From Eledone cirrhosa (lineage: Eukaryota), in contig OZ024762.1 in the NCBI GenBank assembly GCA_964016885.1, forward strand, positions 1,860,001-1,924,000: a DNA stretch of 64,000 nucleotides. Direction: 5' to 3'. The position numbers were made by a program, and so were the translations under genes. The notes beneath the pieces are model-generated. The model had not been told where the DNA came from. It was given only the letters and a program-made list of their open reading frames with translations, and did not search any database. Of the stretch, positions 4,741 to 62,303 are shown one piece after another; the stretch's first letter is position 1; each line of letters begins with the position of its first letter.

Positions 4741-4990
4741 ACGGGCAAAATCAACTGGCAAAAGACCTAAAGGTGGTGGAATAACCAAGCACCCTTCACC
4801 AGGAGCATTACAAGATAAGTCTGTAAGGCCAGGTGATAGCGTGGCTAAGGTGGTGGAATAACCAAGTACGCTTCACCGAGCGGGGGACTCTGTCAAAGGC
4901 TTTCTCCAGGTCTACAAAAGCTAAGTAGAGGGATTTACTTTTAGCTAGGTACTTCTCCTGTAGTTGTCATACAAGGAAAAGAGCGTCTGT

Positions 4991-7192
4991 GATTTCTACA
5001 GCTGGATGCCCTTCCTAACACCAACCTCATTTACAGTGAGTGCTGGGTGCTTTTTCGTGGCGCCTACACGTCCACTTTACAGTGTGGGCTGGGTGCTTTT
5101 TTGCCGTGGCATCTCCACGACCCCCCTTGCGGTGGGGGGGGGGGCATATTGTCTATATGCTTCAGCTTGTACCCATGGGAGGTCGGGTACTCTGTATTAC
5201 TGCATGACGCCAGAAGTCACGGTCGTGTGTCATTGCCTTTGAGAGGTGTAATTGGGTAAGGTCGGCTTTTATCACCTCATCCCAGGTCATCTTGGGTCTC
5301 CCCACTCCGCGGTTTCCATCAACTTCTAGTGTTCTGCACCTTTTTATGCAGCTGTCATCCTTCATACGCATCACATGTCTATACCTGCGCAACCGCCTCT
5401 CCTGCACACAGCATTTGATTCCTCTTATGCTCAATCTCTCTTTCAATTCATTTATGCTTTGTCGTTCACGTATATTACTGTTACACATCCATCGGAGCAT
5501 GCAGGCTTCGTTTCTCTCTAATCTACGTAAGTCTTCCACCTTCAGCGCCCAGGTCTCACTACCATGCAACATTGCTGTTCGGATACACGCATCATACAGT
5601 CTGCCTTTCATTCTGAGGGAGAAGCCTTTTGCAGCTAGCAGTGGTAGTAGTTCCCTAAACTTCTTCCATCCCGTTCTTACCCTAGTTATTGTACTTTCTG
5701 AACACTCACCTCCGCTGCTAATTCGGTCACCTAGGTAGCAGAAGCTGTCTACTGTTTCTACAGAGCCCTCCCAGAGATTGGTGGTACTTGTTTCCTGTGG
5801 CTGTTTGCTGCTTGCTGTCTCAGCACAGCTGCTGCATGTGAAGCCTACATTCTTAATTAAGCTTCCTGAGATCCCGCTACATCTCTTGTGTACCCATTGT
5901 TTGCATTTGGGGCAGAGAATGGAGTTCCTACCTACACCTTTCCTACATACTGAGCAAGGCCATTTCCCTGAGGGGATCTGGGTTCTGTTTTCTCGTCTAC
6001 TTACAAGGACCTTAGTCTTTGTCATGTTGACTTTGAGACCCTTTCTTTCTAGTCCCTGCTTCCAAGTTTGGAATTTATTCTCTAGTTCTACCATAGATTC
6101 AGCTATGAGTGCGAGGTCATCAGCATACAGGAGTTCCCATGGGCATCCGGTCTTAAACTCCTCCGTTATTGCCTGCAGGACTATGATGAACAGGAGGGGG
6201 CTAAGAACAGAGCCCTGGTGGACCCCAACCTGTACGCTAAATTCCTTGCTATACTCATTGCTAATCCTAACTTTGCTGACTGCTCCCCTATACATGGCTT
6301 GTACCGCTTTCACAAGCCATTCATCTATTCCTAGTTTTCTAAGAGCCCACCAGATTACAGCACGTGGAACTCTGTCAAAGGCTTTCTCAAGGTTGACAAA
6401 TGCCAAGTAGAGTGGCTTACTTTTAGCTAGGTACTTTTCCTGTAATTGCCTCACAAGGAAGAGGGCATCAGTGGTGCCTCTTCCTGGTACAAACCCAAAT
6501 TGCATCTCGTCTATTTTCACCCGGTCCCTAATCAACTGTGCTATAACTCTTTGTTACTTTCATGACCTGGTCCATCAACTTTATACCTCTATAGTTTCCT
6601 CTATCTATTGCATCGCTTTTACCTTTGTAGCAGTTGACAATGATGCTACTGCACCAATCTTTTGCTATGACACCTTCTAGTATTACCTGGTTAACAATAT
6701 GTGTGGTTATAGTGTGACCTACAGACCCAGATGCCTTCAGCATCTCGGCAGCTATACCCGATGGACCGGTTGCCTTCCCCATCTTCATATCTTTGATTGC
6801 CTTACTTACTACGCTGCTGCTGACTTGTACTGCTGGCCCCTCTATAGGGTCTACTTGGGGTAGGGTCTCTTCTTCCCATGCATTCTCCTCATTTAGTAAT
6901 CTATCATAATGACTCTTCCATGCATCTTTCTTCTCAGCACTTGTGAGGGCAGGCTCACCTTTATCATTCCGGATACACTTCTCTCCAATGACATCACAAC
7001 TATCTCTGACACACTGCCTCGCAATCTTGAATACCTCCTGTTTCTGGTCCTCACATTGCAAAACATGCTTGAATTTTCTATCCTCTGCTTCCCTCCTAGC
7101 TAAGTATACTTGTCGCCTAGCTTCCCTCTTGGTCTCTATGTAATGTACCCTGCTCCCCCCGTTCTTCCATTCTTTCCATGCCTGTCTCTTGG

Positions 7193-7196
<4 letters not shown>
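4991..7196 (-). mobile_element. Truncated, frameshifted copy of the RTE family at 20727
   Basis: ORFs 6528-7061 and 5162-6535 are near-identical to the intact ORF. 2-nt deletion near 6551, FVNLEKAFD and RRYRH substitutions, 3' tail missing; abuts another small RT fragment at 4880-4968. Confidence 0.95.
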
Positions 7197-10272: not shown

Positions 10273-10805
10273 CCCTTTAGCATTTAAACCAGCCAGAATT
10301 CTCTCACCTCTTTCTGTTGAAACTGGCTGTAACCAGCTGCTCATACTGATGTTAAGGTATTGTTCTTAAAATAGATAATATCAAAATATCATAGATTCGA
10401 TATTATGTGAGGTATTATGTGAGGTAAAGCCTTTACTGTGAAAATACAATAGTATATATAGAGTAATGTAAATGTTATGTGAGATATTATGTGAGGTAAA
10501 GCCTTTACTGTGAAAATACAATAGTATATATAGAGTAATGTAAATGTTATGTGAGATATTATGTGAGGTAAAGCCTTTACTGTGAAAATACAATAGTATA
10601 TATAGAGTAATGTAAATGTTATGTGAGATATTATTTGAGGTAAAGCCTTTACTGTGAAAATACAATAGTATATATAGAGTAATGTAAATGTTATGTGAGG
10701 TAAAGCCTTTACTGTGAAAATACAATAGTATATATAGGGTAATGTAAATGTTATGTGAGATATTATGTGAGGTAAAGCCTTTACTGTAATATAAATGGTA
10801 AAGGG
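10273..10805 (-). mobile_element. piggyBac-type MITE with ~6 internal units, inverted orientation
   Basis: CCCTTTAGCATTTAAAC ... TAAATGGTAAAGGG|TTAA. Confidence 0.83.
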
Positions 10806-14522: not shown

Positions 14523-14795
14523 CATGATCATCATAATAGAAGCGGTAAAAACCAGTTAGACCATTACTCCCAAGAGTGCTTCATACCTCGGGTAGTAGAG
14601 TGGGTAATATGAGAAATTTGGGACCTCGTCAGCTGAGCTCTTGCCGTTTCAACAGTTGGATCCATTCAGATCTGTCTGGAGCTCAGCCATCGGGGTCCCA
14701 AATTTCTCATATTACCCACTCTACTACCCCAAGTATCAAGTACTCTGGTGACTAATGGTCTAACTGGTTTTTACTGCTTCCATTATGATGATCAT
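14523..14795. repeat. Foldback element, ~110-bp imperfect arms; related sequence at 61866-62010
   Basis: ATGATCATCATAAT...GTAGTAGAGTGGGTAATATGAGAAATTTGGGACC mirrored by GGTCCCAAATTTCTCATATTACCCACTCTACTAC...ATTATGATGATCAT. Confidence 0.9.
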
Positions 14796-14817
14796 ATATA
14801 CATATATGTATGATACG

Positions 14818-14876
<59 letters not shown>

Positions 14877-14892
14877 ATGTATATATATATAT

Positions 14893-17800
14893 AGCGTTAA
14901 ATTTTCCCTGCTGTATTAGCGATAAATTTTCGAGGGTTTCTCTTAGTAGCTTTTTCATGTCGTTAATATTATGATGTTCCCTGCTGTATTAGCGTTAAAT
15001 TTTCCCTGCTGTATTAGCGATAAATTTTCGAGGGTTTCTCTTAGTAGCTTTTTTCATGACGTTATTATTGTTAATTTTACTGATGTAGTATTAACTTATT
15101 AACTTGGATATTTACCATGCGGTATTCTAATCCTATTGTATCTCTCTCAGTTCCTACCCCCCCCCCCTCTATGCACTTCTTTAAGGCTTACTACCCTGTC
15201 TTTAACCTAATTCATTCAATCTGAAAATATTGAAGAGATAAGACACTTTGCCATTCTTCTCTGCTAAAATGTACCAGTAGAGCTGATTCAAATTTTCCCA
15301 GCCAGCCATCCACCTAATCTACGAAGGTATTTTAGCCTACATATTGTCGTTAATATTATGATGTTCCCTGCTGTATTAGCGTTAAATTTTCCCTGCTGTA
15401 TTAGCGATAAATTTTCGAGGGTTTCTCTTAGTAGCTTTTTCATGTCGTTAATATTATGATGTTCCCTGCTGTATTAGCGTTAAATTTTCCCTGCTGTATT
15501 AGCGATAAATTTTCGAGGGTTTCTCTTAGTAGCTTTTTTCATGACGTTATTATTGTTAATTTTACTGATGTAGTATTAACTTATTAACTTGGATATTTAC
15601 CATGCGGTATTCTAATCCTATTGTATCTCTCTCAGTTCCTACCCCCCCCCCCTCTATGCACTTCTTTAAGGCTTACTACCCTGTCTTTAACCTAATTCAT
15701 TCAATCTGAAAATATTGAAGAGATAAGACACTTTGCCATTCTTCTCTGCTAAAATGTACCAGTAGAGCTGATTCAAATTTTCCCAGCCAGCCATCCACCT
15801 AATCTACGAAGGTATTTTAGCCTACATATTGTCGTTAATATTATGATGTTCCCTGCTGTATTAGCGTTAAATTTTCCCTGCTGTATTAGCGATAAATTTT
15901 CGAGGGTTTCTCTTAGTAGCTTTTTCATGTCGTTAATATTATGATGTTCCCTGCTGTATTAGCGTTAAATTTTCCCTGCTGTATTAGCGATAAATTTTCG
16001 AGGGTTTCTCTTAGTAGCTTTTTTCATGACGTTATTATTGTTAATTTTACTGATGTAGTATTAACTTATTAACTTGGATATTTACCATGCGGTATTCTAA
16101 TCCTATTGTATCTCTCTCAGTTCCTACCCCCCCCCCCCTCTATGCACTTCTTTAAGGCTTACTACCCTGTCTTTAACCTAATTCATTCAATCTGAAAATA
16201 TTGAAGAGATAAGACACTTTGCCATTCTTCTCTGCTAAAATGTACCAGTAGAGCTGATTCAAATTTTCCCAGCCAGCCATCCACCTAATCTACGAAGGTA
16301 TTTTAGCCTACATATTGTCGTTAATATTATGATGTTCCCTGCTGTATTAGCGTTAAATTTTCCCTGCTGTATTAGCGATAAATTTTCGAGGGTTTCTCTT
16401 AGTAGCTTTTTCATGTCGTTAATATTATGATGTTCCCTGCTGTATTAGCGTTAAATTTTCCCTGCTGTATTAGCGATAAATTTTCGAGGGTTTCTCTTAG
16501 TAGCTTTTTTCATGACGTTATTATTGTTAATTTTACTGATGTAGTATTAACTTATTAACTTGGATATTTACCATGCGGTATTCTAATCCTATTGTATCTC
16601 TCTCAGTTCCTACCCCCCCCCCCCCTCTATGCACTTCTTTAAGGCTTACTACCCTGTCTTTAACCTAATTCATTCAATCTGAAAATATTGAAGAGATAAG
16701 ACACTTTGCCATTCTTCTCTGCTAAAATGTACCAGTAGAGCTGATTCAAATTTTCCCAGCCAGCCATCCACCTAATCTACGAAGGTATTTTAGCCTACAT
16801 ATTGTCGTTAATATTATGATGTTCCCTGCTGTATTAGCGTTAAATTTTCCCTGCTGTATTAGCGATAAATTTTCGAGGGTTTCTCTTAGTAGCTTTTTCA
16901 TGTCGTTAATATTATGATGTTCCCTGCTGTATTAGCGTTAAATTTTCCCTGCTGTATTAGCGATAAATTTTCGAGGGTTTCTCTTAGTAGCTTTTTTCAT
17001 GACGTTATTATTGTTAATTTTACTGATGTAGTATTAACTTATTAACTTGGATATTTACCATGCGGTATTCTAATCCTATTGTATCTCTCTCAGTTCCTAC
17101 CCCCCCCCCCCTCTATGCACTTCTTTAAGGCTTACTACCCTGTCTTTAACCTAATTCATTCAATCTGAAAATATTGAAGAGATAAGACACTTTGCCATTC
17201 TTCTCTGCTAAAATGTACCAGTAGAGCTGATTCAAATTTTCCCAGCCAGCCATCCACCTAATCTACGAAGGTATTTTAGCCTACATATTGTCGTTAATAT
17301 TATGATGTTCCCTGCTGTATTAGCGTTAAATTTTCCCTGCTGTATTAGCGATAAATTTTCGAGGGTTTCTCTTAGTAGCTTTTTCATGTCGTTAATATTA
17401 TGATGTTCCCTGCTGTATTAGCGTTAAATTTTCCCTGCTGTATTAGCGATAAATTTTCGAGGGTTTCTCTTAGTAGCTTTTTTCATGACGTTATTATTGT
17501 TAATTTTACTGATGTAGTATTAACTTATTAACTTGGATATTTACCATGCGGTATTCTAATCCTATTGTATCTCTCTCAGTTCCTACCCCCCCCCCCCCCC
17601 CCTCTATGCACTTCTTTAAGGCTTACTACCCTGTCTTTAACCTAATTCATTCAATCTGAAAATATTGAAGAGATAAGACACTTTGCCATTCTTCTCTGCT
17701 AAAATGTACCAGTAGAGCTGATTCAAATTTTCCCAGCCAGCCATCCACCTAATCTACGAAGGTATTTTAGCCTACATATTGTCGTTAATATTATGATGTT

Positions 17801-20467
17801 CCCTGCTGTATTAGCGTTAAATTTTCCCTGCTGTATTAGCGATAAATTTTCGAGGGTTTCTCTTAGTAGCTTTTTCATGTCGTTAATATTATGATGTTCC
17901 CTGCTGTATTAGCGTTAAATTTTCCCTGCTGTATTAGCGATAAATTTTCGAGGGTTTCTCTTAGTAGCTTTTTTCATGACGTTATTATTGTTAATTTTAC
18001 TGATGTAGTATTAACTTATTAACTTGGATATTTACCATGCGGTATTCTAATCCTATTGTATCTCTCTCAGTTCCTACCCCCCCCCCCTCTATGCACTTCT
18101 TTAAGGCTTACTACCCTGTCTTTAACCTAATTCATTCAATCTGAAAATATTGAAGAGATAAGACACTTTGCCATTCTTCTCTGCTAAAATGTACCAGTAG
18201 AGCTGATTCAAATTTTCCCAGCCAGCCATCCACCTAATCTACGAAGGTATTTTAGCCTACATATTGTCGTTAATATTATGATGTTCCCTGCTGTATTAGC
18301 GTTAAATTTTCCCTGCTGTATTAGCGATAAATTTTCGAGGGTTTCTCTTAGTAGCTTTTTCATGTCGTTAATATTATGATGTTCCCTGCTGTATTAGCGT
18401 TAAATTTTCCCTGCTGTATTAGCGATAAATTTTCGAGGGTTTCTCTTAGTAGCTTTTTTCATGACGTTATTATTGTTAATTTTACTGATGTAGTATTAAC
18501 TTATTAACTTGGATATTTACCATGCGGTATTCTAATCCTATTGTATCTCTCTCAGTTCCTACCCCCCCCCCCCTCTATGCACTTCTTTAAGGCTTACTAC
18601 CCTGTCTTTAACCTAATTCATTCAATCTGAAAATATTGAAGAGATAAGACACTTTGCCATTCTTCTCTGCTAAAATGTACCAGTAGAGCTGATTCAAATT
18701 TTCCCAGCCAGCCATCCACCTAATCTACGAAGGTATTTTAGCCTACATATTGTCGTTAATATTATGATGTTCCCTGCTGTATTAGCGTTAAATTTTCCCT
18801 GCTGTATTAGCGATAAATTTTCGAGGGTTTCTCTTAGTAGCTTTTTCATGTCGTTAATATTATGATGTTCCCTGCTGTATTAGCGTTAAATTTTCCCTGC
18901 TGTATTAGCGATAAATTTTCGAGGGTTTCTCTTAGTAGCTTTTTTCATGACGTTATTATTGTTAATTTTACTGATGTAGTATTAACTTATTAACTTGGAT
19001 ATTTACCATGCGGTATTCTAATCCTATTGTATCTCTCTCAGTTCCTACCCCCCCCCCCCCTCTATGCACTTCTTTAAGGCTTACTACCCTGTCTTTAACC
19101 TAATTCATTCAATCTGAAAATATTGAAGAGATAAGACACTTTGCCATTCTTCTCTGCTAAAATGTACCAGTAGAGCTGATTCAAATTTTCCCAGCCAGCC
19201 ATCCACCTAATCTACGAAGGTATTTTAGCCTACATATTGTCGTTAATATTATGATGTTCCCTGCTGTATTAGCGTTAAATTTTCCCTGCTGTATTAGCGA
19301 TAAATTTTCGAGGGTTTCTCTTAGTAGCTTTTTCATGTCGTTAATATTATGATGTTCCCTGCTGTATTAGCGTTAAATTTTCCCTGCTGTATTAGCGATA
19401 AATTTTCGAGGGTTTCTCTTAGTAGCTTTTTTCATGACGTTATTATTGTTAATTTTACTGATGTAGTATTAACTTATTAACTTGGATATTTACCATGCGG
19501 TATTCTAATCCTATTGTATCTCTCTCAGTTCCTACCCCCCCCCCCCCTCTATGCACTTCTTTAAGGCTTACTACCCTGTCTTTAACCTAATTCATTCAAT
19601 CTGAAAATATTGAAGAGATAAGACACTTTGCCATTCTTCTCTGCTAAAATGTACCAGTAGAGCTGATTCAAATTTTCCCAGCCAGCCATCCACCTAATCT
19701 ACGAAGGTATTTTAGCCTACATATTGTCGTTAATATTATGATGTTCCCTGCTGTATTAGCGTTAAATTTTCCCTGCTGTATTAGCGATAAATTTTCGAGG
19801 GTTTCTCTTAGTAGCTTTTTCATGTCGTTAATATTATGATGTTCCCTGCTGTATTAGCGTTAAATTTTCCCTGCTGTATTAGCGATAAATTTTCGAGGGT
19901 TTCTCTTAGTAGCTTTTTTCATGACGTTATTATTGTTAATTTTACTGATGTAGTATTAACTTATTAACTTGGATATTTACCATGCGGTATTCTAATCCTA
20001 TTGTATCTCTCTCAGTTCCTACCCCCCCCCCCCCCCTCTATGCACTTCTTTAAGGCTTACTACCCTGTCTTTAACCTAATTCATTCAATCTGAAAATATT
20101 GAAGAGATAAGACACTTTGCCATTCTTCTCTGCTAAAATGTACCAGTAGAGCTGATTCAAATTTTCCCAGCCAGCCATCCACCTAATCTACGAAGGTATT
20201 TTAGCCTACATATTGTCGTTAATATTATGATGTTCCCTGCTGTATTAGCGTTAAATTTTCCCTGCTGTATTAGCGATAAATTTTCGAGGGTTTCTCTTAG
20301 TAGCTTTTTCATGTCGTTAATATTATGATGTTCCCTGCTGTATTAGCGTTAAATTTTCCCTGCTGTATTAGCGATAAATTTTCGAGGGTTTCTCTTAGTA
20401 GCTTTTTTCATGACGTTATTATTGTTAATTTTACTGATGTAGTATTAACTTGGATATTTACCATGCG
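14893..20467. repeat. Tandem array, ~11.5 copies of a 485-491 bp monomer
   Basis: Unit starts at 15346, 15831, 16317, 16804, 17290, 17781, 18266, 18752, 19239, 19726, 20215. Copies differ visibly only in a poly-C run. Each has an internal 98-bp duplication built on ~25-bp subrepeats. Confidence 0.97.
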
Positions 20468-20726
20468 ACCCTCAGTTCCTACCTCACAATTTCCCTCCCC
20501 CCCACCCCCACACACCACCATAGTCTATTCGACCAATCAAACCTAGCATGCCATTTCCACTGCTGCTGCTGCTACTACCTGCCTAACTAACTCTCTCCTC
20601 CTCTGGCGCATCCCAACACACCCTGCCATTACCCCACCACCACTGTCCTTCTAGCCCTCAATTTTCCCACCGTTATGGATGGATGAGCTGGGAATACACG
20701 AGCAACTCTGAATCAATAGATGAAAT

Positions 20727-23700
20727 ATGAATCTGCGAGCTACCAAGCACCCACGTGAAGCGCCAACCCAGAGACCCTCCCCTACGAGTGTCGACAAATG
20801 CCCAAAACTCCGAGTTGGTACCATCAATGTAGGCTCAATGAAAGGAAGAGCAGGAGAAATCGTAGAAATGCTAGAGCGAAAGGAAGTTGATGTATGCTGT
20901 GTGCAAGAGACTAGATGGAGAGGAGGGTCTGCTAGAGTCCTTGTAGGAAAAAGCCAGTGCTACAAATTTTTCTGGGTGGGAAATGACGATGGGATGGGTG
21001 GTGTAGGTATACTATTAGCTGACAAGTGGGTAGATAAAGTAATCTCAGTGTACAGGGTAAATGCAAGAATCATTAAACTCAGACTAGTCCTGAATAAGAC
21101 AATTACCACAATAATATCAGCTTACGCACCCCAATCGGGGCTGCCAGACGAACTTAAGGATAGGTTTTACGAGTCCCTAATACACACTACTGCTCTAACA
21201 GACGACAAGGACTTCCTAATCATTGCAGGAGATTTTAACGGACACGTAGGTAAACACTGCGACGGCTTCAATAGAGTACATGGAGGCCATGGAGTTGGCA
21301 CAAGGAATGAGGAAGGATTCAGACTTCTAGAATTCTGCGACGCCAATGACATGTCGATATGTAACACAAACTTTAAAAAACCCGACAACCACCTGATCAC
21401 CTATAGATCAGGGGAGCACTCTAGTCAGTTAGATTTTATTCTCATCAGAGGACGTGACAGATGGACGGTCGTAAACACAAAAGCCTTCCCTAGTGAGGAA
21501 TGTACATCCCAACATAGCTTAGTTGTCAGCGACCTCACGGTCAGAACTAGACGAGCTCTGAAACAGAGGCCAACCTGGAGAAGAAAGATCTGGAAGCTGA
21601 AAGTCCCCTCAACCAGTAACAGATTTAAAGATATTTTACTCAACGCCTACGACAGTAAAGAAGAACAGATACAGACATTTAACGTAGAAGAGAACTGGGA
21701 GTTCCTAAAAAATAACTTACTAGAGGCGACGGATGAGGTTTGTGGCTGGAGTAAGACCTCAAGCAGGAGGAGAGTGACTTGGTGGTGGAACAATAAGGTA
21801 GATGAAGCAGTCAAGGCCAAGAGACAGGCATGGAAAGAATGGAAGAACGGGGGGAGCAGGGTACATTACATAGAGACCAAGAGGGAAGCTAGGCGACAAG
21901 TATACTTAGCTAGGAGGGAAGCAGAGGATAGAAAATTCAAGCATGTTTTACAACGTGAGGACCAGAAACAGGAGGTATTCAAGATTGCGAGGCAGTGTGT
22001 CAGAGATAGTTGTGATGTCATTGGAGAGAAGTGTATCCGGAATGATAAAGGTGAGCTTGCCCTCACAAGTGCTGAGAAGAAAGATGCATGGAAGAGTCAT
22101 TATGATAGATTACTAAATGAGGAGAATGCATGGGAAGAAGAGACCCTACCCCACGTAGACCCTATAGAGGGACCAGCAGTACAAGTCAGCGGCAGCGTAG
22201 TAAGTAAGGCAATCAGAGATATGAAGATAGGGAAGGCAACCGGTCCATCGGGTATAGCTGCCGAGATGCTGAAGGCATCTGGGTCTGTAGGTCACACTAT
22301 AACCACACGTATCGTTAACCAGGTAATACTAGAGGGGGCCATACCAAAAGATTGGTGCAGTAGCATCATTGTCAACTGCTACAAAGGTAAAGGCGATGCA
22401 CTAGATAGAGGAAACTATAGAGGTATAAAGTTGATGGACCAGGTCATGAAAGTAACAGAAAGAGTTATAGCACAGCTGATTAGGGACCGGGTGAATATAG
22501 ACGAGATGCAATTTGGGTTTGTTCCAGGGAAAGGCACCACTGATGCGCTCTTCCTTGTGAGGCAATTACAGGAAAAGTACCTAGCTAAAAGTAAGCCACT
22601 CTACTTGGCATTTGTCGACCTTGAGAAAGCCTTTGACAGAGTTCCACGTGCAGTAATCTGGTGGGCTCTTAGAAAACTAGGAGTAGATGAATGGCTTGTG
22701 AAAGCGGTACAAGCCATGTATAGGGGAGCAGTCAGCAAAGTTAGGATTGGCAATGAGTATAGCGAGGAATTTAGCGTACAGGTTGGGGTCCACCAGGGCT
22801 CTGTTCTTAGCCCTCTCCTGTTCATCATAGTCCTGCAGGCAATAACGGAGGAGTTTAAGACCGGATGCCCATGGGAACTCCTGTATGCTGATGACCTCGC
22901 ACTCATAGCTGAATCTATGGTAGAACTAGAGAATAAATTCCAAACCTGGAAGCAGGGACTAGAGAGAAAGGGCCTCAAAGTCAACATGACAAAGACTAAG
23001 GTCCTTATAAGTAGACGAGAAAACAGAACCCAGATCCCCTCAGGGAAATGGCCTTGCTCAGTATGTAGGAAAGGTGTAGGTAGGAACTCCATTCTTTGCC
23101 CCAAATGCAAACAATGGGTACACAAGAGATGTAGCGGGATCTCAGGAAGCTTAATTAAGAATGTAGGATTCACATGCAGCAGCTGTGCTGAAACAGCAAG
23201 CAAACAGCCACAGGAAACAAGTACCACCAATCTCTGGGAGGGCCCTGTAGAAACAGTAGACAGCTTCTGCTACCTAGGTGACCGAATTAGCAACGGAGGT
23301 GGGTGCTCAGAAAGTACAATAACTAGGGTAAGAACGGGATGGAAGAAGTTTAGGGAACTACTACCACTGCTAGCTGCAAAAGGCTTCTCCCTCAGAATGA
23401 AAGGCAGACTGTATGATGCGTGTATCCGAACAGCGATGTTGCATGGTAGTGAGACCTGGGCGCTGAAGGTGGAAGACTTACGTAGATTAGAGAGAAACGA
23501 AGCCTGCATGCTCCGATGGATGTGTAACAGTAATATACGTGAACGACAAAGCATAAATGAATTGAGAGAGAGACTGAGCATAAGAGGAATCAAATGCTGC
23601 GTGCAGGAGAGGCGGTTACGCTGGTATGGACATGTGATGCGTATGAAGGATGACAGCTGCATAAAAAGGTGCAGAGCACTAGAAGTTGATGGAAACCGCG

Positions 23701-23846
23701 GAGTGGGGAGACCCAAGATGACTTGGGATGAGGTGATAAGAGCCGACCTTACCCAACTACACCTCTCAAAGTCAATGACACACGACCGTGACTTCTGGTG
23801 TCACGCAGTAATACAGGGTACCCGACCTCCCATGGGTACATGCTGA
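20727..23846 (+). CDS. RTE-clade LINE ORF: APE endonuclease, reverse transcriptase and embedded PHD-type finger (1039 aa, uninterrupted)
   Basis: APE motifs GTINVGSM, CCVQETRW, SAYAPQ, AGDFNGHVG, SQLDFIL, SQHSLV; RT motifs QFGFVPG, FVDLEKAFD, GVHQGSVLSPLLF, YADD (22884-22895), FCYLG; RTE C-terminal RRLRWYGHV and GRPKMTW. Confidence 0.97.
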   Translation: MNLRATKHPREAPTQRPSPTSVDKCPKLRVGTINVGSMKGRAGEIVEMLERKEVDVCCVQETRWRGGSARVLVGKSQCYKFFWVGNDDGMGGVGILLADKWVDKVISVYRVNARIIKLRLVLNKTITTIISAYAPQSGLPDELKDRFYESLIHTTALTDDKDFLIIAGDFNGHVGKHCDGFNRVHGGHGVGTRNEEGFRLLEFCDANDMSICNTNFKKPDNHLITYRSGEHSSQLDFILIRGRDRWTVVNTKAFPSEECTSQHSLVVSDLTVRTRRALKQRPTWRRKIWKLKVPSTSNRFKDILLNAYDSKEEQIQTFNVEENWEFLKNNLLEATDEVCGWSKTSSRRRVTWWWNNKVDEAVKAKRQAWKEWKNGGSRVHYIETKREARRQVYLARREAEDRKFKHVLQREDQKQEVFKIARQCVRDSCDVIGEKCIRNDKGELALTSAEKKDAWKSHYDRLLNEENAWEEETLPHVDPIEGPAVQVSGSVVSKAIRDMKIGKATGPSGIAAEMLKASGSVGHTITTRIVNQVILEGAIPKDWCSSIIVNCYKGKGDALDRGNYRGIKLMDQVMKVTERVIAQLIRDRVNIDEMQFGFVPGKGTTDALFLVRQLQEKYLAKSKPLYLAFVDLEKAFDRVPRAVIWWALRKLGVDEWLVKAVQAMYRGAVSKVRIGNEYSEEFSVQVGVHQGSVLSPLLFIIVLQAITEEFKTGCPWELLYADDLALIAESMVELENKFQTWKQGLERKGLKVNMTKTKVLISRRENRTQIPSGKWPCSVCRKGVGRNSILCPKCKQWVHKRCSGISGSLIKNVGFTCSSCAETASKQPQETSTTNLWEGPVETVDSFCYLGDRISNGGGCSESTITRVRTGWKKFRELLPLLAAKGFSLRMKGRLYDACIRTAMLHGSETWALKVEDLRRLERNEACMLRWMCNSNIRERQSINELRERLSIRGIKCCVQERRLRWYGHVMRMKDDSCIKRCRALEVDGNRGVGRPKMTWDEVIRADLTQLHLSKSMTHDRDFWCHAVIQGTRPPMGTC

Positions 23847-24176
23847 AGCATATAAACAATATGCCCCCCCCCCCCCACCGCAAGGTGGTCGTGGAGGTGC
23901 CACGGCAAAAAAGCACCCAGCCCACACTGTAAAGTGGACGTGTAGGCGCCACGAAAAAGCACCCAGCACTCACTGTAAATGAGGTTGGTGTTAGGAAGGG
24001 CATCCAGCTGTAGAAATCAAGCCAGATCAGTTCCTGTATGAGCAAGGCATGGTCAGCCGACCAGACACTGCCCACAACAGGACAACCCGTCTAACCCATG
24101 CTAGCGTGGAAGAACGGACGTAAAACGGTGATGATGATGATGATGATGATATATATGTATATATATATATATATAC

Positions 24177-24236
<60 letters not shown>

Positions 24237-24431: not shown

Positions 24432-25115
24432 CATATATATATATACACTGAGGATGAAGAACTCAGAACTGTACAGGAGCCTCCCAAAAGTCAGCTCGAA
24501 AGTAGCACAGAGGAGACTGAGGTTAGCTGGACATGCTCACCGACATCCAGAGTTGACACTGCACTCAGTGTTCCTGTGGGAGTTTCTACAAGGGCACACT
24601 AGAAGAGGGACACTGAGGTTAGCTGGACATGCTCACCGACATCCAGAGTTGACACTGCACTCAGTGTTCCTGTGGGAGTCTCTACAAGGGCACACTAGAA
24701 GAGGGACACTGAGGTTAGCTGGACATGCTCACCGACATCCAGAGTTGACACTGCACTCAGTGTTCCTGTGGGAGTCTCTACAAGGGCACACTAGAAGAGG
24801 GACACTGAGGTAAGCTGGACATGCTCACCGACATCCAGAGTTGACACTGCACTCAGTGTTCCTGTGGGAGTCTCTACAAGGGCACACTAGAAGAGGGACA
24901 CTGAGGTAAGCTGGACATGCTCACCGACATCCAGAGTTGACACTGCACTCAGTGTTCCTGTGGGAGTCTCTACAAGGGCACACTAGAAGAGGGACACTGA
25001 GGTAAGCTGGACATGCTCACCAATATTCAGAGTTGAGACTGCACTCAGTGGTCCTGTGTGATCCCCTACTCGGACACACTAGAAGAGGGAGACTGAGGTT
25101 GACATATATTGATGC
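24432..25115 (+). repeat. 3' fragment of another RTE-like LINE with a 96-bp segment amplified six times
   Basis: Units start at 24517, 24613, 24709, 24805, 24901, 24997; peptide RRLRLAGHAHRHPE..LWE..GHTRRG..TYID resembles non-LTR RT C-termini. Confidence 0.85.
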
Positions 25116-31200: not shown

Positions 31201-39396
<8,196 letters not shown>

Positions 39397-39696: not shown

Positions 39697-39985
39697 CCCT
39701 TTAGCATTTACATTACTCTATATATAATATTGTATTTTCACAGTAAAGGCTTTACCTCACATAATATCTCACATAACATTTACATTACTCTATATATAGT
39801 ATTGTATTTTCATGGTAAAGGCTTTTTCTCATATAATTATCTCACATAATATTGAATCAATGAGATTTTGATATTATTTTCAGTATGATACCTTAACATC
39901 AGTATGAGTAGCCAGTTACAGTCAGTTTGAACAGAAAGGGGTGAGAGGATTCTGGCTGGATATAGCTAGTTTAAATACTGAAGGG
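39697..39985 (+). mobile_element. piggyBac-type MITE with two internal units
   Basis: TTAA|CCCTTTAGCATTTA ... TAAATACTGAAGGG|TTAA. Confidence 0.85.
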
Positions 39986-41904
39986 TTAAGTATCGTTAAG
40001 AGTATAGACTTTTTTTCACAACTCCATTCAATTATGGGTTTTTTTTAACCGTTTCATCCATTTTATGAAGTTTCAACAAGTTTCTCAAATTTTTTTAATT
40101 TTCTTTTAGCTGACAACATTAGCGCCATCTTCTCTCTTTTCCTCTCTCTTCACTAACTTGAGTGTGTGTGTGTCTGTGTGTATGGTGAGTGTGTGTGTAT
40201 GTGAGAGTGTGTGTGTGTGTGTGTGTCTGTATGTGAGTGTGTGTGTGTGTGCGTGCCTGTGTGTGTGTGTGTATGTGAGAGAGTGTGTGTGTGTGTATGT
40301 GTATATGTAAGGGTGTGTATGTCTGTATGTGAGTGTGTGTGTGTGTGTGTGAGAGAGTGTGTGTGTGTATATGTAAGGGTGTGTATGTGTGTATGTGAGA
40401 GTGTGTGTGTGTGTGTGTCTGTATGTGAGTGTGTGTGTGTGTGTGTGTGTGCCTATGTGTGTGTATGTGTGTGTGTGTAAGGGTGTGTATGTGTGTATGT
40501 GAAGGTGTGTGTTGGTGTAATAGTCAATGTTGACCATGGCAAGATTTGAACTCAGAACGTAATTAGCCGGAACAAATACAAGAAACCACTGGACCTGGCG
40601 CTCTACCAATCCTGCCAATCTTTAAAACCTAGCTAATAATAATTGTTTCTACTTTTGGCACAAGGCCAACAATTTGGGGGGAGGGAAAAGTCGATTAAAT
40701 CAGCCCCAGTACATTACTGATACTTTATTTTATCGATGAAACACAAAGCTACCCTTGGTGGGATTTGAAATCAAAACATAAAGGGCCATAACTCTATGCC
40801 ACGAAACATGGTGTCCAATGCTTTACCGATTCTACCAATGCACCACCTTTATAATAAAAATAAATTTGAATAAAAATTGCTGGCTGTCTTCATTTCTTCT
40901 TTCTTACTGTCTTTTATTACTCTCTATTTACGAGTTAACGAAACACTGTAAAGTGGTTGTGATGGTGACACGGTAAAAAGTACCCAGTCCACTGTAAAGT
41001 GGTCGTGTAGGTGTCACGATAAAAAAGCACCCAGCCCACACTGTAAATGTGGTTGGTGTTAGGAAGGGCATCCAGCTCTAGAAACCAAGCCAAAATCAGT
41101 TCTGTATGTACAAGACATGGCCACCTAACTTGGCATTGCTCACAACAGGGCAACTCGTCTAACCCATGCCAGCGTGGAAAAATGGACGTAAGACAATGAT
41201 GATGTCCTCAGCTTCGACTGGGTAAACAGATGATAAGAGAAGACAGGTAGAAAAGAAAATGACTGTATTGGATGTGTTGTCTGGTTTACAGTATGAGGCA
41301 AGACAGCGGTGTGTGTGTACATATGCATATATTTATATGTATAAGTTTATAAATATAAACCTGTAAACACAGACACACTTACCAAAATACACACTCACAG
41401 ACATACATTACACATACACTCACACATACATTCACACGAACACACCTATACATTTAAACAAACACTCATACAGTTACATAAACATACACTCACACCCAGC
41501 GTAGCAAATGGAACACCACCTGCTGTTTTGCTTCAGTTTTTTCACCATCCCCTTCCTTTTACATGCACATACATTCACACACATTGTGTGATGGACCGAC
41601 AGATGGAATCACTCAAATTTATATATATATTCACAGTTTATCAATTCGGAGAAGACATTACAGATCAGCAAAGAATGCACAAAGAGAAAGTATTAATTAA
41701 TAAATATAAACCACATTTAAATATGATAAATACTTTATATATTTCATAATATTCAATATTAAATATTTTTTTTTATCAATCAATATCTGACATCATGTAG
41801 CAAAATTAAGTTTTTAGAATGAATGTCATGATTGTCTTGAAAGAGTTGAAACTGGTTGGGAAAGACAGCAAACAATAGATTAGCTGTATGTGATATTAAC
41901 TTTT

Positions 41905-43046: not shown

Positions 43047-44863
43047 CCCTTTAGCATTTACATAACTCTATATATACTATTGTATTTTCACAGTAAAGGC
43101 TTTACCTCACATAATATCTCACATAACATTTACATAACTCTATATATACTATTGTATTTTCACAGTAAAGGCTTTACCTCACATAATATCTCACATAACA
43201 TTTACATTACTCTATATATACTATTGTATTGTCACAGTAAAGGCTTTACCTCACATAATATCTCACATAACATTTACATTACTCTATATATACTATTGTA
43301 TTGTCACAGTAAAGGCTTTACCTCACATAATATCTCACATAACATTTACATTACTCTATATATACTATTGTATTTTCACAGTAAAGGCTTTACCTCACCT
43401 AATATCTCACATAACATTTACATTACTCTATATATACTATTGTATTTTCACAGTAAAGGCTTTACCTCACATAATATCTCACATAACATTTACATTACTC
43501 TATATATACTATTGTATTTTCACAGTAAAGGCTTGACCTCACATAATATCTCACATAACATTTACATTACTCTATATATACTATTGTATTGTCACAGTAA
43601 AGGCTTTACCTCACATAATATCTCACATAACATTTACATTACTCTATATATACTATTGTATTGTCACAGTAAAGGCTTTACCTCACATAATATCTCACAT
43701 AACATTTACATTACTCTCTATATACTATTGTATTGTCACAGTAAAGGCTTTACCTCACATAATATCTCACATAACATTTACATTACTCTATATATACTAT
43801 TGTATTTTCACAGTAAAGGCTTTACCTCACCTAATATCTCACATAACATTTACATTACTCTATATATACTATTGTATTTTCACAGTAAAGGCTTTACCTC
43901 ACATAATATCTCACATAACATTTACATTACTCTATATATACTATTGTATTTTCACAGTAAAGGCTTTACCTCACATAATATCTCACATAACATTTACATT
44001 ACTCTATACCAAAGGTTCTCAATGGGGGGCATATGCACCCTCGGGGGGCGTTTCGGAACTCCAGGGGGGCGTTTGGGAGCAAGGTCGCGTTTGGAGCTGG
44101 GGGAGGGAGGTTAGGGGGCGCTGGAAGGCTCTTTATTTTGGTAAGTTTTATAAGCCATATTTGTATGTCTTTGAGACAGCCAGTGTGAATGCATTTGAAT
44201 GAGCTTGCAGACAGCATAGCTATAGTCTGACTGCAGCTGTGCAGGCATGTCCGGTAATTGAGATCCTAAAAATGGAAAAACCCACAGTCAACTAGGTCAA
44301 AGATACTTTGAGCGTAGCCAGTTAGAATCTTATCTTTGCTTCACCGATAACAATGTATTTCATGTCTGAAATTATTGACTCAACCGTAACGAGTTAACAC
44401 TATGTAGATCTATTTTATTCCCTATTGTATAAATAATATTACAAATAAAAAAAAAAGAAAAGAAAAAACAGAAGCGAGTAGAACACACATCTAGGACCAC
44501 ATAATCAGATAATACACACATCTAGGACCACATACAACACATAATCAGATAATACACACATCTTTGGAATATTGTTAATCAATTTTTTAGTAATCTACTG
44601 ATATAAAAATCAGTAGTATATTGAAAAATGGAAAAATAGGGGGGGGGGGGCGTTTCGTGATTTCGAGGGACAAAAGGGGGCGTTTGGCCTAAATGGGTTG
44701 AGAACCTGTGCTCTATACTATTGTATTTTCACAGTAAAGGCTTTACCTCACATAATATCAAATCTACAAGATGATGTTATTTATTTTGAGAACAATACCT
44801 TAACATAAGTATGAGAAAGAGGGAGAATCTTGGCCAGATACAGCCTGTTTAAATGCTAAAGGG
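43047..44863 (+). mobile_element. piggyBac-type MITE with ~13 internal 72-bp tandem units, interrupted by a hAT MITE
   Basis: TTAA|CCCTTTAGCATTTA ... TAAATGCTAAAGGG|TTAA: TIRs with TTAA target duplication. Confidence 0.88.
44010..44710. mobile_element. Non-autonomous hAT (Charlie-like) element
   Basis: TIRs CAAAGGTTCTCAA / TTGAGAACCTGTG; exact 8-bp TSD CTCTATAC at 44002-44009 and 44711-44718. Confidence 0.9.

Positions 44864-45728: not shown

Positions 45729-62303
<16,575 letters not shown>

Follow-up and report, generated by a model that had tools for sequence, protein, structure and literature searches.

A young, intact LINE that is likely a member of the RTE clade, a label based on architecture and motifs, lies in the window (the whole 64-kb stretch of DNA analysed) with 5.6 kb of tandem repeats at its 5′ end. 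The repeats (14893–20467) comprise 11.4 units of 485–491 bp that vary solely in one poly-C run. The repeated monomer belongs to the 5′ end of the element family, where it is joined to a tether. The parts of the locus are as follows.

14794–14893, no strand: (TA)n/(TG)n microsatellite at the 5′ junction, the target site, with TA microhomology to the first array base
14893–15344, + strand: first monomer, 5′-truncated, with its start 33 bp inside the head, at the counterpart of position 20247 of the last head
15345–20213, + strand: ten full monomers of 485–491 bp, alike except for poly-C length
15345, 15830, 16316, 16803, 17289, 17780, 18265, 18751, 19238, and 19725, + strand: starts of the full monomers
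20181–20213, + strand: monomer tail end, in every unit a candidate transcription-start zone (from the depth step, the X5 junction, and arithmetic)
20214–20467, + strand: terminal head (2 × 98 bp) and short-form spacer, without one TATTAACT copy
20468–20726, + strand: unique, C-rich, tether-like leader of 259 bp, 51% GC
20727–23846, + strand: single ORF of 1039 aa, with APE at aa 32–266, RT at aa 557–761 with an intact YADD, and a PHD-type finger at aa 777–820
23847–24149, + strand: 3′ UTR of 303 bp, ending in (TGA)7 at 24129–24149
24149–24233, no strand: (TA)n microsatellite at the 3′ junction

Coding region and 3′ end

The ORF is open throughout, with the first in-frame stop upstream at 20721, and it matches the Pfam families Exo_endo_phos and RVT_1. 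The APE domain harbors N34, E61, Y133, D169, N171, D236, and H263, and the RT domain harbors YADD; these residues match those conserved in 105–120 of the 120 relatives listed. As judged from the translation, the catalytic residues of an autonomous LINE are intact. At least 120 relatives, 45–55% identical, and 10 clusters are listed for the ORF, none of which bears a clade name, and the LINE matches in the PDB are L1 ORF2p and R2 only. No ORF of at least 150 aa is found upstream of the 1039-aa ORF; six short upstream ORFs start at 20463–20720 in the leader region.

One ORF with an N-terminal APE followed by RT, and no separate ORF1, is the architecture of RTE elements. The short 3′ UTR closes in a microsatellite-like repeat rather than in poly(A), an RTE-type end described in PMC6007223. 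The last ~270 bp of the 3′ UTR are common to several short dispersed repeats in the window. Beyond it, an 18-bp TA-rich string at 24154–24171 matches the left flank with an offset of 4 bp and is a possible target-site duplication; those of RTE elements measure about 7–15 bp. The surrounding (TA)n precludes a call, and a 20-bp TA-rich string that includes this match turns up 30 times in the window.

The monomer array and its family

TRF reports a period of 487, 11.4 copies, and 99% matches over 14892–20451 with a score of 11000, far beyond chance, and unit alignment resolves 10 full units, a 5′-truncated first unit, and a final head. Only six columns vary across the 10 full units, all inside the poly-C run, the length of which ranges from 11 to 17 C across the 11 tails. 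Each unit consists of a head (2 × 98 bp), a spacer of ~60 bp, and a tail of ~225 bp, and each 98-bp head subunit in turn holds two 25-bp subrepeats. The monomer is 36% GC, with a CpG observed/expected ratio of 1.36 in the head and 0.14 in the tail, and its longest open frame is 63 aa. It is found nowhere else in the 64-kb window.

The initial annotation had described about 11.5 near-identical units of ~486 bp that begin mid-unit directly after (TA)n, a last partial unit that passes into a unique leader running to the ATG at 20727, and a far end also in (TA)n. All of this is borne out: TRF and the alignment give 11.4 units, the array begins 33 bp into a unit at 14893, the leader takes over at 20468 and extends for 259 bp (20468–20726), and (TGA)7 is followed by (TA)n. 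The string CTCAGTTCCTACC, described as shared, is real as well (13/13, E 0.004); leader and monomer tail have no clear homology past this 13-mer (next best E 0.015).

The monomer was compared with contigs of 6 of 24 other sequencing runs, namely X1, X2, X5, X6, X7, and X8; the comparison along the tail covers X1, X5, X6, and X8, and that along the leader X1, X2, X6, and X7. Monomer pieces and junctions occur in X1, X2, and X5, and the link to the leader occurs in X1; these matches come from runs under two other organism labels, A and B. The X1 contigs span head, spacer, tail, and the 98–98 junction; one of them, at depth 27.7, continues from the short spacer into 17 leader letters, and another, of 1351 bp, runs from 20455 in the monomer through the leader and into the ORF with three differences. 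A 339-bp X5 contig covers the head exit, spacer, and tail. A tail-to-head contig is present in both X1 and X5, and the monomers of both include the first ~29 bases of the leader. In the junction contigs, the head accounts for 30 letters and the leader for 17, below the 31-letter bridging rule, and no contig of the compared runs crosses the whole stretch. The recurrence of monomer and tandem junction in other runs, and of the leader join in X1, marks the monomer as the family's own 5′ end and not a chance satellite.

The 98-bp subunit closes into a cycle in the X6, X7, and X8 assemblies. Positions 20412–20660 are uncovered in X6 and X7, and the tail is little covered in X6 and X8; coverage holes prove nothing, and replacement of the leader in X6 and X7 is therefore not claimed. 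An exact 36-base monomer pattern has 0 matches in metagenome contigs, and a monomer or leader match is present in none of 79 related metagenome loci, just two of which reach the 5′ end of the ORF; this comparison is uninformative. One of these loci (L001) contains three 22-bp repeats at a spacing of 45–48 bp, and another (L038) a chance 15-mer. The sole RNA run listed is a gut metagenome, with 7% of words.

The ratio of tail to head depth is 0.41–0.49 in X1, 0.52 in X5, and 0.55 in X2, compared to 0.92 at this locus. These ratios correspond to 1.7–2.2 heads per array and hint that a typical family copy carries ~2 monomer heads, bearing in mind that contig depth is not copy number and that tail depth could be depressed by poly-C or by bias in the library. 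The 11.4 units here would then contrast with ~2 heads on average in the family; a second full locus was not seen. The X5 flows are unbalanced (511.5 in the subunit versus 363.6 leaving), and the leader branch appears in 0 of 5 X5 contigs.

From the tail interior to its last ~30 bases, depth rises from 30 to 60.5 in X1 and from 123.8 to 215.9 in X5, placing a step at 20181–20213 in both runs that cover the tail. One X5 contig joins 318 foreign bases at 20181, the sole foreign 5′ junction seen. These observations suggest, as a hint, that family 5′ starts cluster 20–30 bp upstream of the head. A GCCAT lies near this putative start, at 20174; such 5-mers occur by chance, and it is noted as a lead only. 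The initial annotation took the element to be truncated within the array. This calls for adjustment: the copy would begin ~55–65 bp downstream of the putative usual start, and a typical copy seems to have ~2 heads instead of 11.

All 11 tails at the locus lack a 22-bp segment and carry three substitutions relative to the X1 and X5 monomers, and no substitutions separate the units, so that one unit was amplified very recently. Given the three changes in 1351 bp of leader and ORF relative to X1, ~12 array substitutions would be expected at the same age compared to the 0 observed (P about 4e-6). Organisms A and B possibly belong to species other than that of the window, in which case the seemingly private tail changes may be species- or subfamily-wide and not specific to this locus. 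The poly-C lengths nearly repeat, with 11, 12, 13, 12, and 17 in tails 2–6 and 11, 12, 13, 13, and 15 in tails 7–11 (permutation p 0.010–0.015, with the statistic picked post hoc).

Proposed growth and putative function of the array

On balance, it is proposed that the tandem monomers of this young RTE-like LINE form a family 5′ end that would serve as a renewable internal promoter and that the array here grew very recently from ~2 heads to 11.4 units. Transcription would begin near the tail end of each unit, at about 20181–20195, and new copies would begin just upstream of a head, keeping the downstream monomers as a promoter. A typical copy would have the form head–tail–head–leader, with about two heads. 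The present copy would have inserted into (TA)n 55–65 bp short of the usual start. Its two heads lie at a distance of one unit as perfect direct repeats, and unequal exchange between such identical heads may have set off duplication in steps, one of which probably doubled a 5-unit block. By analogy with mouse L1Md, the monomers likely act as a renewable internal promoter; against this, they are AT-rich, unlike the CpG-island monomers of rodents, and no TATA or DRE match is found in 19725–20760. The earlier suggestion of a monomeric 5′ leader or promoter of an RTE family stands at the structural level, given the monomer, tail-to-head junction, and leader join in other runs.

Several other origins have to be weighed. 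That an independent satellite adjoins the LINE or was invaded by it is largely refuted. Satellites typically form long arrays of identical units, yet nothing specific favors this reading, the X1 and X5 monomers contain the first ~29 bases of the leader, X1 contigs connect the spacer to the leader, and neither target site nor microsatellite separates array and leader. Arrays of the monomer independent of the element, for which the initial annotation had advised a check, were not seen; the tail/head ratio in three runs (0.41–0.55) is about 0.5 rather than the ~1 expected of a satellite, which is a hint only. It is improbable that the assembler inflated a shorter array, for example, by entering a 5-unit stretch twice in an array of ~6 units. 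A doubled block with read-level homopolymer errors would yield the same poly-C pattern, and the units are identical apart from this homopolymer; however, the two blocks differ by one and two C at two places, and the usual error of assemblers is the opposite, as they more often collapse such arrays. Since the monomer and its junctions are present in independent runs, the unit count alone is in question. Slightly less credible still is a single event in which the RT re-copied one monomer repeatedly during insertion, by template jumping or rolling copy. Identical units of one derived type throughout, and an array end that coincides exactly with the 5′ junction, would fit such an event, whereas the recurrence of poly-C lengths over 5 units points to block duplication in steps (p about 0.01, post hoc). 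The initial annotation had offered re-copying as the origin of the repeats; since other runs already show the monomer in tandem, no such event need be assumed.

Unlikely, but to be taken seriously, is inheritance of the long array from a parent with at least 12 derived monomers, the 9.3-kb transcript of which was reverse-transcribed almost whole. A 5′ end 55–65 bp from the putative start zone fits a near-full-length transcript from an upstream monomer, the truncated first unit has the same derived tail, and the lack of substitutions and the block pattern could stem from the parent; amplification in a parent copy fits the data as well as amplification at the locus. Long arrays nevertheless appear rare in the family, with ~2 heads on average, and the other copies of the element in the window are both truncated within the ORF, one at 1.1 kb and one at 2.0 kb, such that complete 9-kb copying would be uncommon. 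Distinctly unlikely is that the repeats are a neutral, unstable VNTR of the element or an RNA-level element, with the promoter in the leader. The unit is AT-rich, the closed 98-bp cycle in X6, X7, and X8 points to a labile structure, and the initiator-like motif TCAGTT also occurs in the leader at 20472. Against this reading, the depth step and one flank junction put 5′ ends upstream of the head but still within the monomer, and monomers in RNA-derived copies require transcripts that start at or above the monomers. A signal of RNA structure is also absent, with fold z values of −0.77 and +1.26 and no Rfam match better than E 0.7. Repeats that bear ribozymes are known as retrozymes, and HDV-like ribozymes occur at the 5′ ends of LINEs. 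In the monomer and leader, no self-cleaving ribozyme is found: the best Rfam match has E 0.7, a hammerhead core is present on neither strand, and a folding signal is absent.

A bolder form of the promoter reading is regarded as tentative and rather doubtful. It holds that a modular promoter array able to renew itself arose independently in an RTE lineage, with monomer starts, recombinational regrowth, module swaps between related hosts, and kilobase satellites routinely formed in place. The swap in question would concern 486/504-bp monomers versus pure 98-bp repeats in related hosts, with the ORF 99.7% identical.

Comparison with other LINE 5′ ends

No tandem-monomer 5′ array of RTE elements was found in the literature searched. 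RTE-clade LINEs likewise have a single ORF with endonuclease and RT and a microsatellite 3′ end, and RTE-2_OV of Octopus vulgaris, as described in PMC9115989, also has a zinc finger. Compared by description, the ORF of RTE-2_OV is 1109 aa and its 5′ UTR ~600 nt, versus 1039 aa and a 5.6-kb array here, and the word “tandem” is absent from the main text of that report. Leader, ORF, and 3′ UTR together span 3.7 kb, near the 3.58-kb mean of mollusc RTE-BovB in the available text of PMC10294476.

The available text of PMC6454616 singles out mouse L1Md for its terminal high-copy promoter monomers and calls their regeneration unclear. If the present reading is true, a second, unrelated LINE lineage has the same design, having converged on a common solution to the loss of the 5′ promoter, and a path from LINE 5′ end to satellite DNA becomes visible. 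Very young arrays carry lineage marks (the 22-bp deletion and the poly-C lengths), which makes in-place growth, inheritance, and RT re-copying directly testable against each other. Such 5′ ends would be hidden by short-read assemblies and by tandem-repeat clean-up steps.

Mouse L1Md (A, Gf, Tf) and rat L1 have tandem monomers and a tether in the 5′ UTR (PMC5381506 and PMC6454616, available text). As here, head-to-tail monomers are joined to the ORF by a unique tether (~250 bp there, 259 bp here), and the terminal monomer is altered. L1Md arrays average 2.7–3.1 monomers, reach up to 50, and have their 5′ ends gathered at the start site (PMC6454616, available text); a mean of 2–3 monomers with rare long arrays, and a single point within the monomer at which 5′ ends cluster, may hold for the present family too, as gauged from contig depth. 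At 486 bp and 36% GC, the monomer here has a hierarchical build (25 in 98 in 486 bp), whereas the rodent monomer is a CpG island of ~200 bp. Promoter activity is shown for mouse L1Md monomers; the monomers here are a candidate promoter. Unlike L1, the element has one ORF, a (TGA)n tail, and a PHD-type finger. Membership in L1 itself (CpG-island monomer, ORF1 and ORF2, poly-A) was considered and rejected on the basis of the 36% GC, the lack of ORF1, and the lack of poly-A. The L1 5′ UTRs of horse, elephant, opossum, and hyrax contain 70–100-bp motifs in two or three tandem copies (PMC5381506, available text). These are not expandable terminal arrays, unlike the array here, but they share with it tandem duplication in a LINE 5′ UTR, and the 2 × 98-bp head is similar in size.

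Structure of the array and its monomer

The tandem array at the 5′ end of the RTE-like LINE spans 14892–20451 with a period of 487 bp and 11.4 copies (TRF), bearing out the initial annotation's description of about 11.5 near-identical units of ~486 bp that start mid-unit. Unit splitting and alignment resolve it as follows.

Array features (forward strand)
14893: start of the first unit, 33 bp into the unit
Between the first unit and the last head: ten full units
20214–20467: last head

Each unit opens with a head made of two 98-bp subunits, each containing two 25-bp subrepeats; a spacer of ~60 bp follows, and then a tail of ~225 bp. Six columns vary among the ten full units, all within one poly-C run. 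The last head has one TATTAACT copy fewer and passes without a gap into the 259-bp unique leader. The monomer is absent elsewhere in the 64-kb window.

Family membership was checked in contigs of six (X1, X2, X5, X6, X7, and X8) of the 24 listed public sequencing runs.

Contig depths in the runs
X1 (organism A), 98-bp subunit: 142.5
X1, 98–98 junction: 73.1
X1, head exit: 56.6
X1, array-type spacer: 35.5
X1, short spacer plus 17 letters of leader: 27.7
X1, two tail variants: 16.8 and 13.2
X1, tail-to-head contig: 60.5
X1, 1351-bp contig running from 20455 across the leader into the ORF: 38.2, 3 differences
X5 (organism B), 98-bp subunit: 511.5
X5, 98–98 junction: 239.8
X5, tail-to-head: 215.9
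X5, 339-bp exit–spacer–tail contig: 123.8
X2 (organism B), 98–98 junction: 9903; array-type spacer: 5400

At the level of contigs, these data show the same monomer, tandem and leader-linked, outside the assembly of the window, through joins that reach 30 letters into the head and 17 into the leader, below the 31-letter bridging threshold, with no contig spanning the whole stretch. The X1 and X5 monomer carries an extra 22-bp segment that includes the opening bases of the leader, which explains why the last unit had been described as "grading" into the leader. The shared bases are confirmed; the terminal form of the monomer differs from the array form in that a stretch between short direct repeats was lost (or never gained).

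Over 20214–20407, the 98-bp subunit in X6, X7, and X8 closes into a 128-bp cycle that lacks the exit branch found in X1 and X5; in related hosts, the same LINE may bear arrays built purely of the 98-bp subunit. The X6 contig over the ORF differs from the window ORF at 3 of 1135 positions (99.7% identity). In L001, a related LINE locus from metagenome contigs, three 22-bp GC-rich repeats lie 45–48 bp apart (304–418) around the ORF start of a 44%-identical relative.

Array growth and monomer number

The 22-bp segment is missing from each of the 11 tails, which also depart at positions 20035, 20119, and 20146 from all listed X1 and X5 contigs that cover those sites, and hence all derive from a single unit. 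No substitutions separate the 11 tails, while leader and ORF differ from X1 at 3 of 1351 sites. At the age of leader and ORF, about 12 array substitutions are expected (P about 4e-6 for none), and consensus polishing could contribute to their lack. In tail order, the poly-C lengths are 11, 11, 12, 13, 12, 17, 11, 12, 13, 13, and 15, such that the series of tails 2–6 almost recurs in tails 7–11 (p 0.010 and 0.015 by permutation, with statistics picked post hoc). This pattern hints at a 5-unit block duplication within the array, and an assembler that wrote one block twice would mimic it. The simplest mechanism of growth would be unequal exchange between perfect head repeats, either at the locus or in a parent copy, and the derived monomer may be locus-, subfamily-, or species-specific. 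Our verdict is that the array is real, represents the family's own monomeric 5′ end, and was amplified recently, at or just before insertion.

Monomer numbers from within-run depth ratios are hints, as contig depth is not copy number. Tail/head ratios of 0.41–0.49 (X1), 0.52 (X5), and 0.55 (X2), set beside 0.92 at the window locus, hint at 1.7–2.2 heads per array in the three runs. In X1, heads (about 71) approximate the sum of tails (30–35) and leaders (38), which is what arrays attached to elements and opening with a whole head would give. Counting against these readings, flows in X5 are unbalanced (511.5 in the subunit, 363.6 leaving), and the leader branch was not seen in that run. Depth approximately doubles from the tail interior to the final ~30 tail bases in both runs covering the tail, a hint that copies start on average near 20189–20194; the poly-C may depress tail depth, which would count against depth-based readings of start and number. 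At 20181, a single X5 contig of depth 4 passes into 318 bases of foreign sequence. The 5′ start of the window copy, equivalent to 20247 in the last head, lies 55–65 bp downstream of the inferred start zone.

Encoded protein, element ends, and neighboring repeats

The ORF (20727–23846) encodes 1039 aa with APE endonuclease, RT, and PHD-finger domains (Pfam). Its catalytic residues and eight Cys/His ligands agree with those conserved in nearly all relatives (120 aligned of 426 found). The PHD-type finger lies directly past the RT core (23055–23186, aa 777–820), its eight Cys/His being conserved in 119–120 of 120 relatives, and marks a widespread LINE subgroup. Because none of the relatives (120 listed of 426 found) bears a clade name and the LINE proteins matched in the PDB are L1 ORF2p and R2, the RTE label derives from architecture (one ORF, microsatellite tail) and from motifs, not from a tree. 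This architecture is ascribed to RTE elements in PMC6007223.

The element ends at 24149 in (TGA)7 and is flanked on both sides by (TA)n. Its two ends share an 18-bp TA-rich match, but a 20-bp string that includes this match is found 30 times across the window, so it does not qualify as a target-site duplication. Two further copies of the same or a related LINE are 5′-truncated within the ORF (96.7% and 75.5% identical). All three copies (14893 +, 7196 −, and 4049 −) start at or within a few bases after a (TA)n run, reflecting either a preference for such targets or the addition of TA at the 5′ junction.

Neighboring features
4967–7196 (−): 5′-truncated sibling copy, 96.7% identical, 3′ end cut, then a ~110-bp fragment of another RT copy (4881–4991)
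14524–14795: 272-bp imperfect palindrome, MITE-like, 218/272 self-complementary, adjoining the insertion site on the left; partial copy at 61876–61942
23876–24150: 3′ UTR end, shared (78–94%) with short dispersed repeats at 40944–41204, 38155–38424, 2522–2775, and 48933–49092, which are probably SINEs or truncated copies that the LINE has mobilised
10403–10787, 39705–39853, 43055–44008, and 56171–57022: 72-bp minisatellite family, both orientations, up to 13 copies
24512–25100: 96-bp unit × 6.1, 96% matches, ~280 bp past the element's 3′ (TA)n

Putative function and comparison with known systems

Rfam, a hammerhead core search, and folding revealed no ribozyme or RNA family, and no TATA or DRE match was found. 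As candidate motifs, an initiator-like TCAGTT lies in every monomer as well as at 20472, and a GCCAT lies at 20174. Position, the start cluster, and analogy with L1Md suggest that the monomers likely act as a promoter. According to PMC6454616, L1Md 5′ ends mark the start site, and L1Md promoters have a mean of 2.7–3.1 monomers, 99% having 10 or fewer and the longest 50. No description of 5′ monomer arrays in RTE elements was found in the literature searched, mostly by listings, although supplements, Repbase, Dfam, or subscription journals may hold one; the portions of PMC9115989, PMC13282606, PMC10294476, and PMC12051294 consulted describe none. The window element would work like the monomer-plus-tether 5′ UTR of mouse and rat L1 outlined in PMC5381506. 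In contrast to these, it is not an L1, and its monomer is AT-rich and hierarchical.
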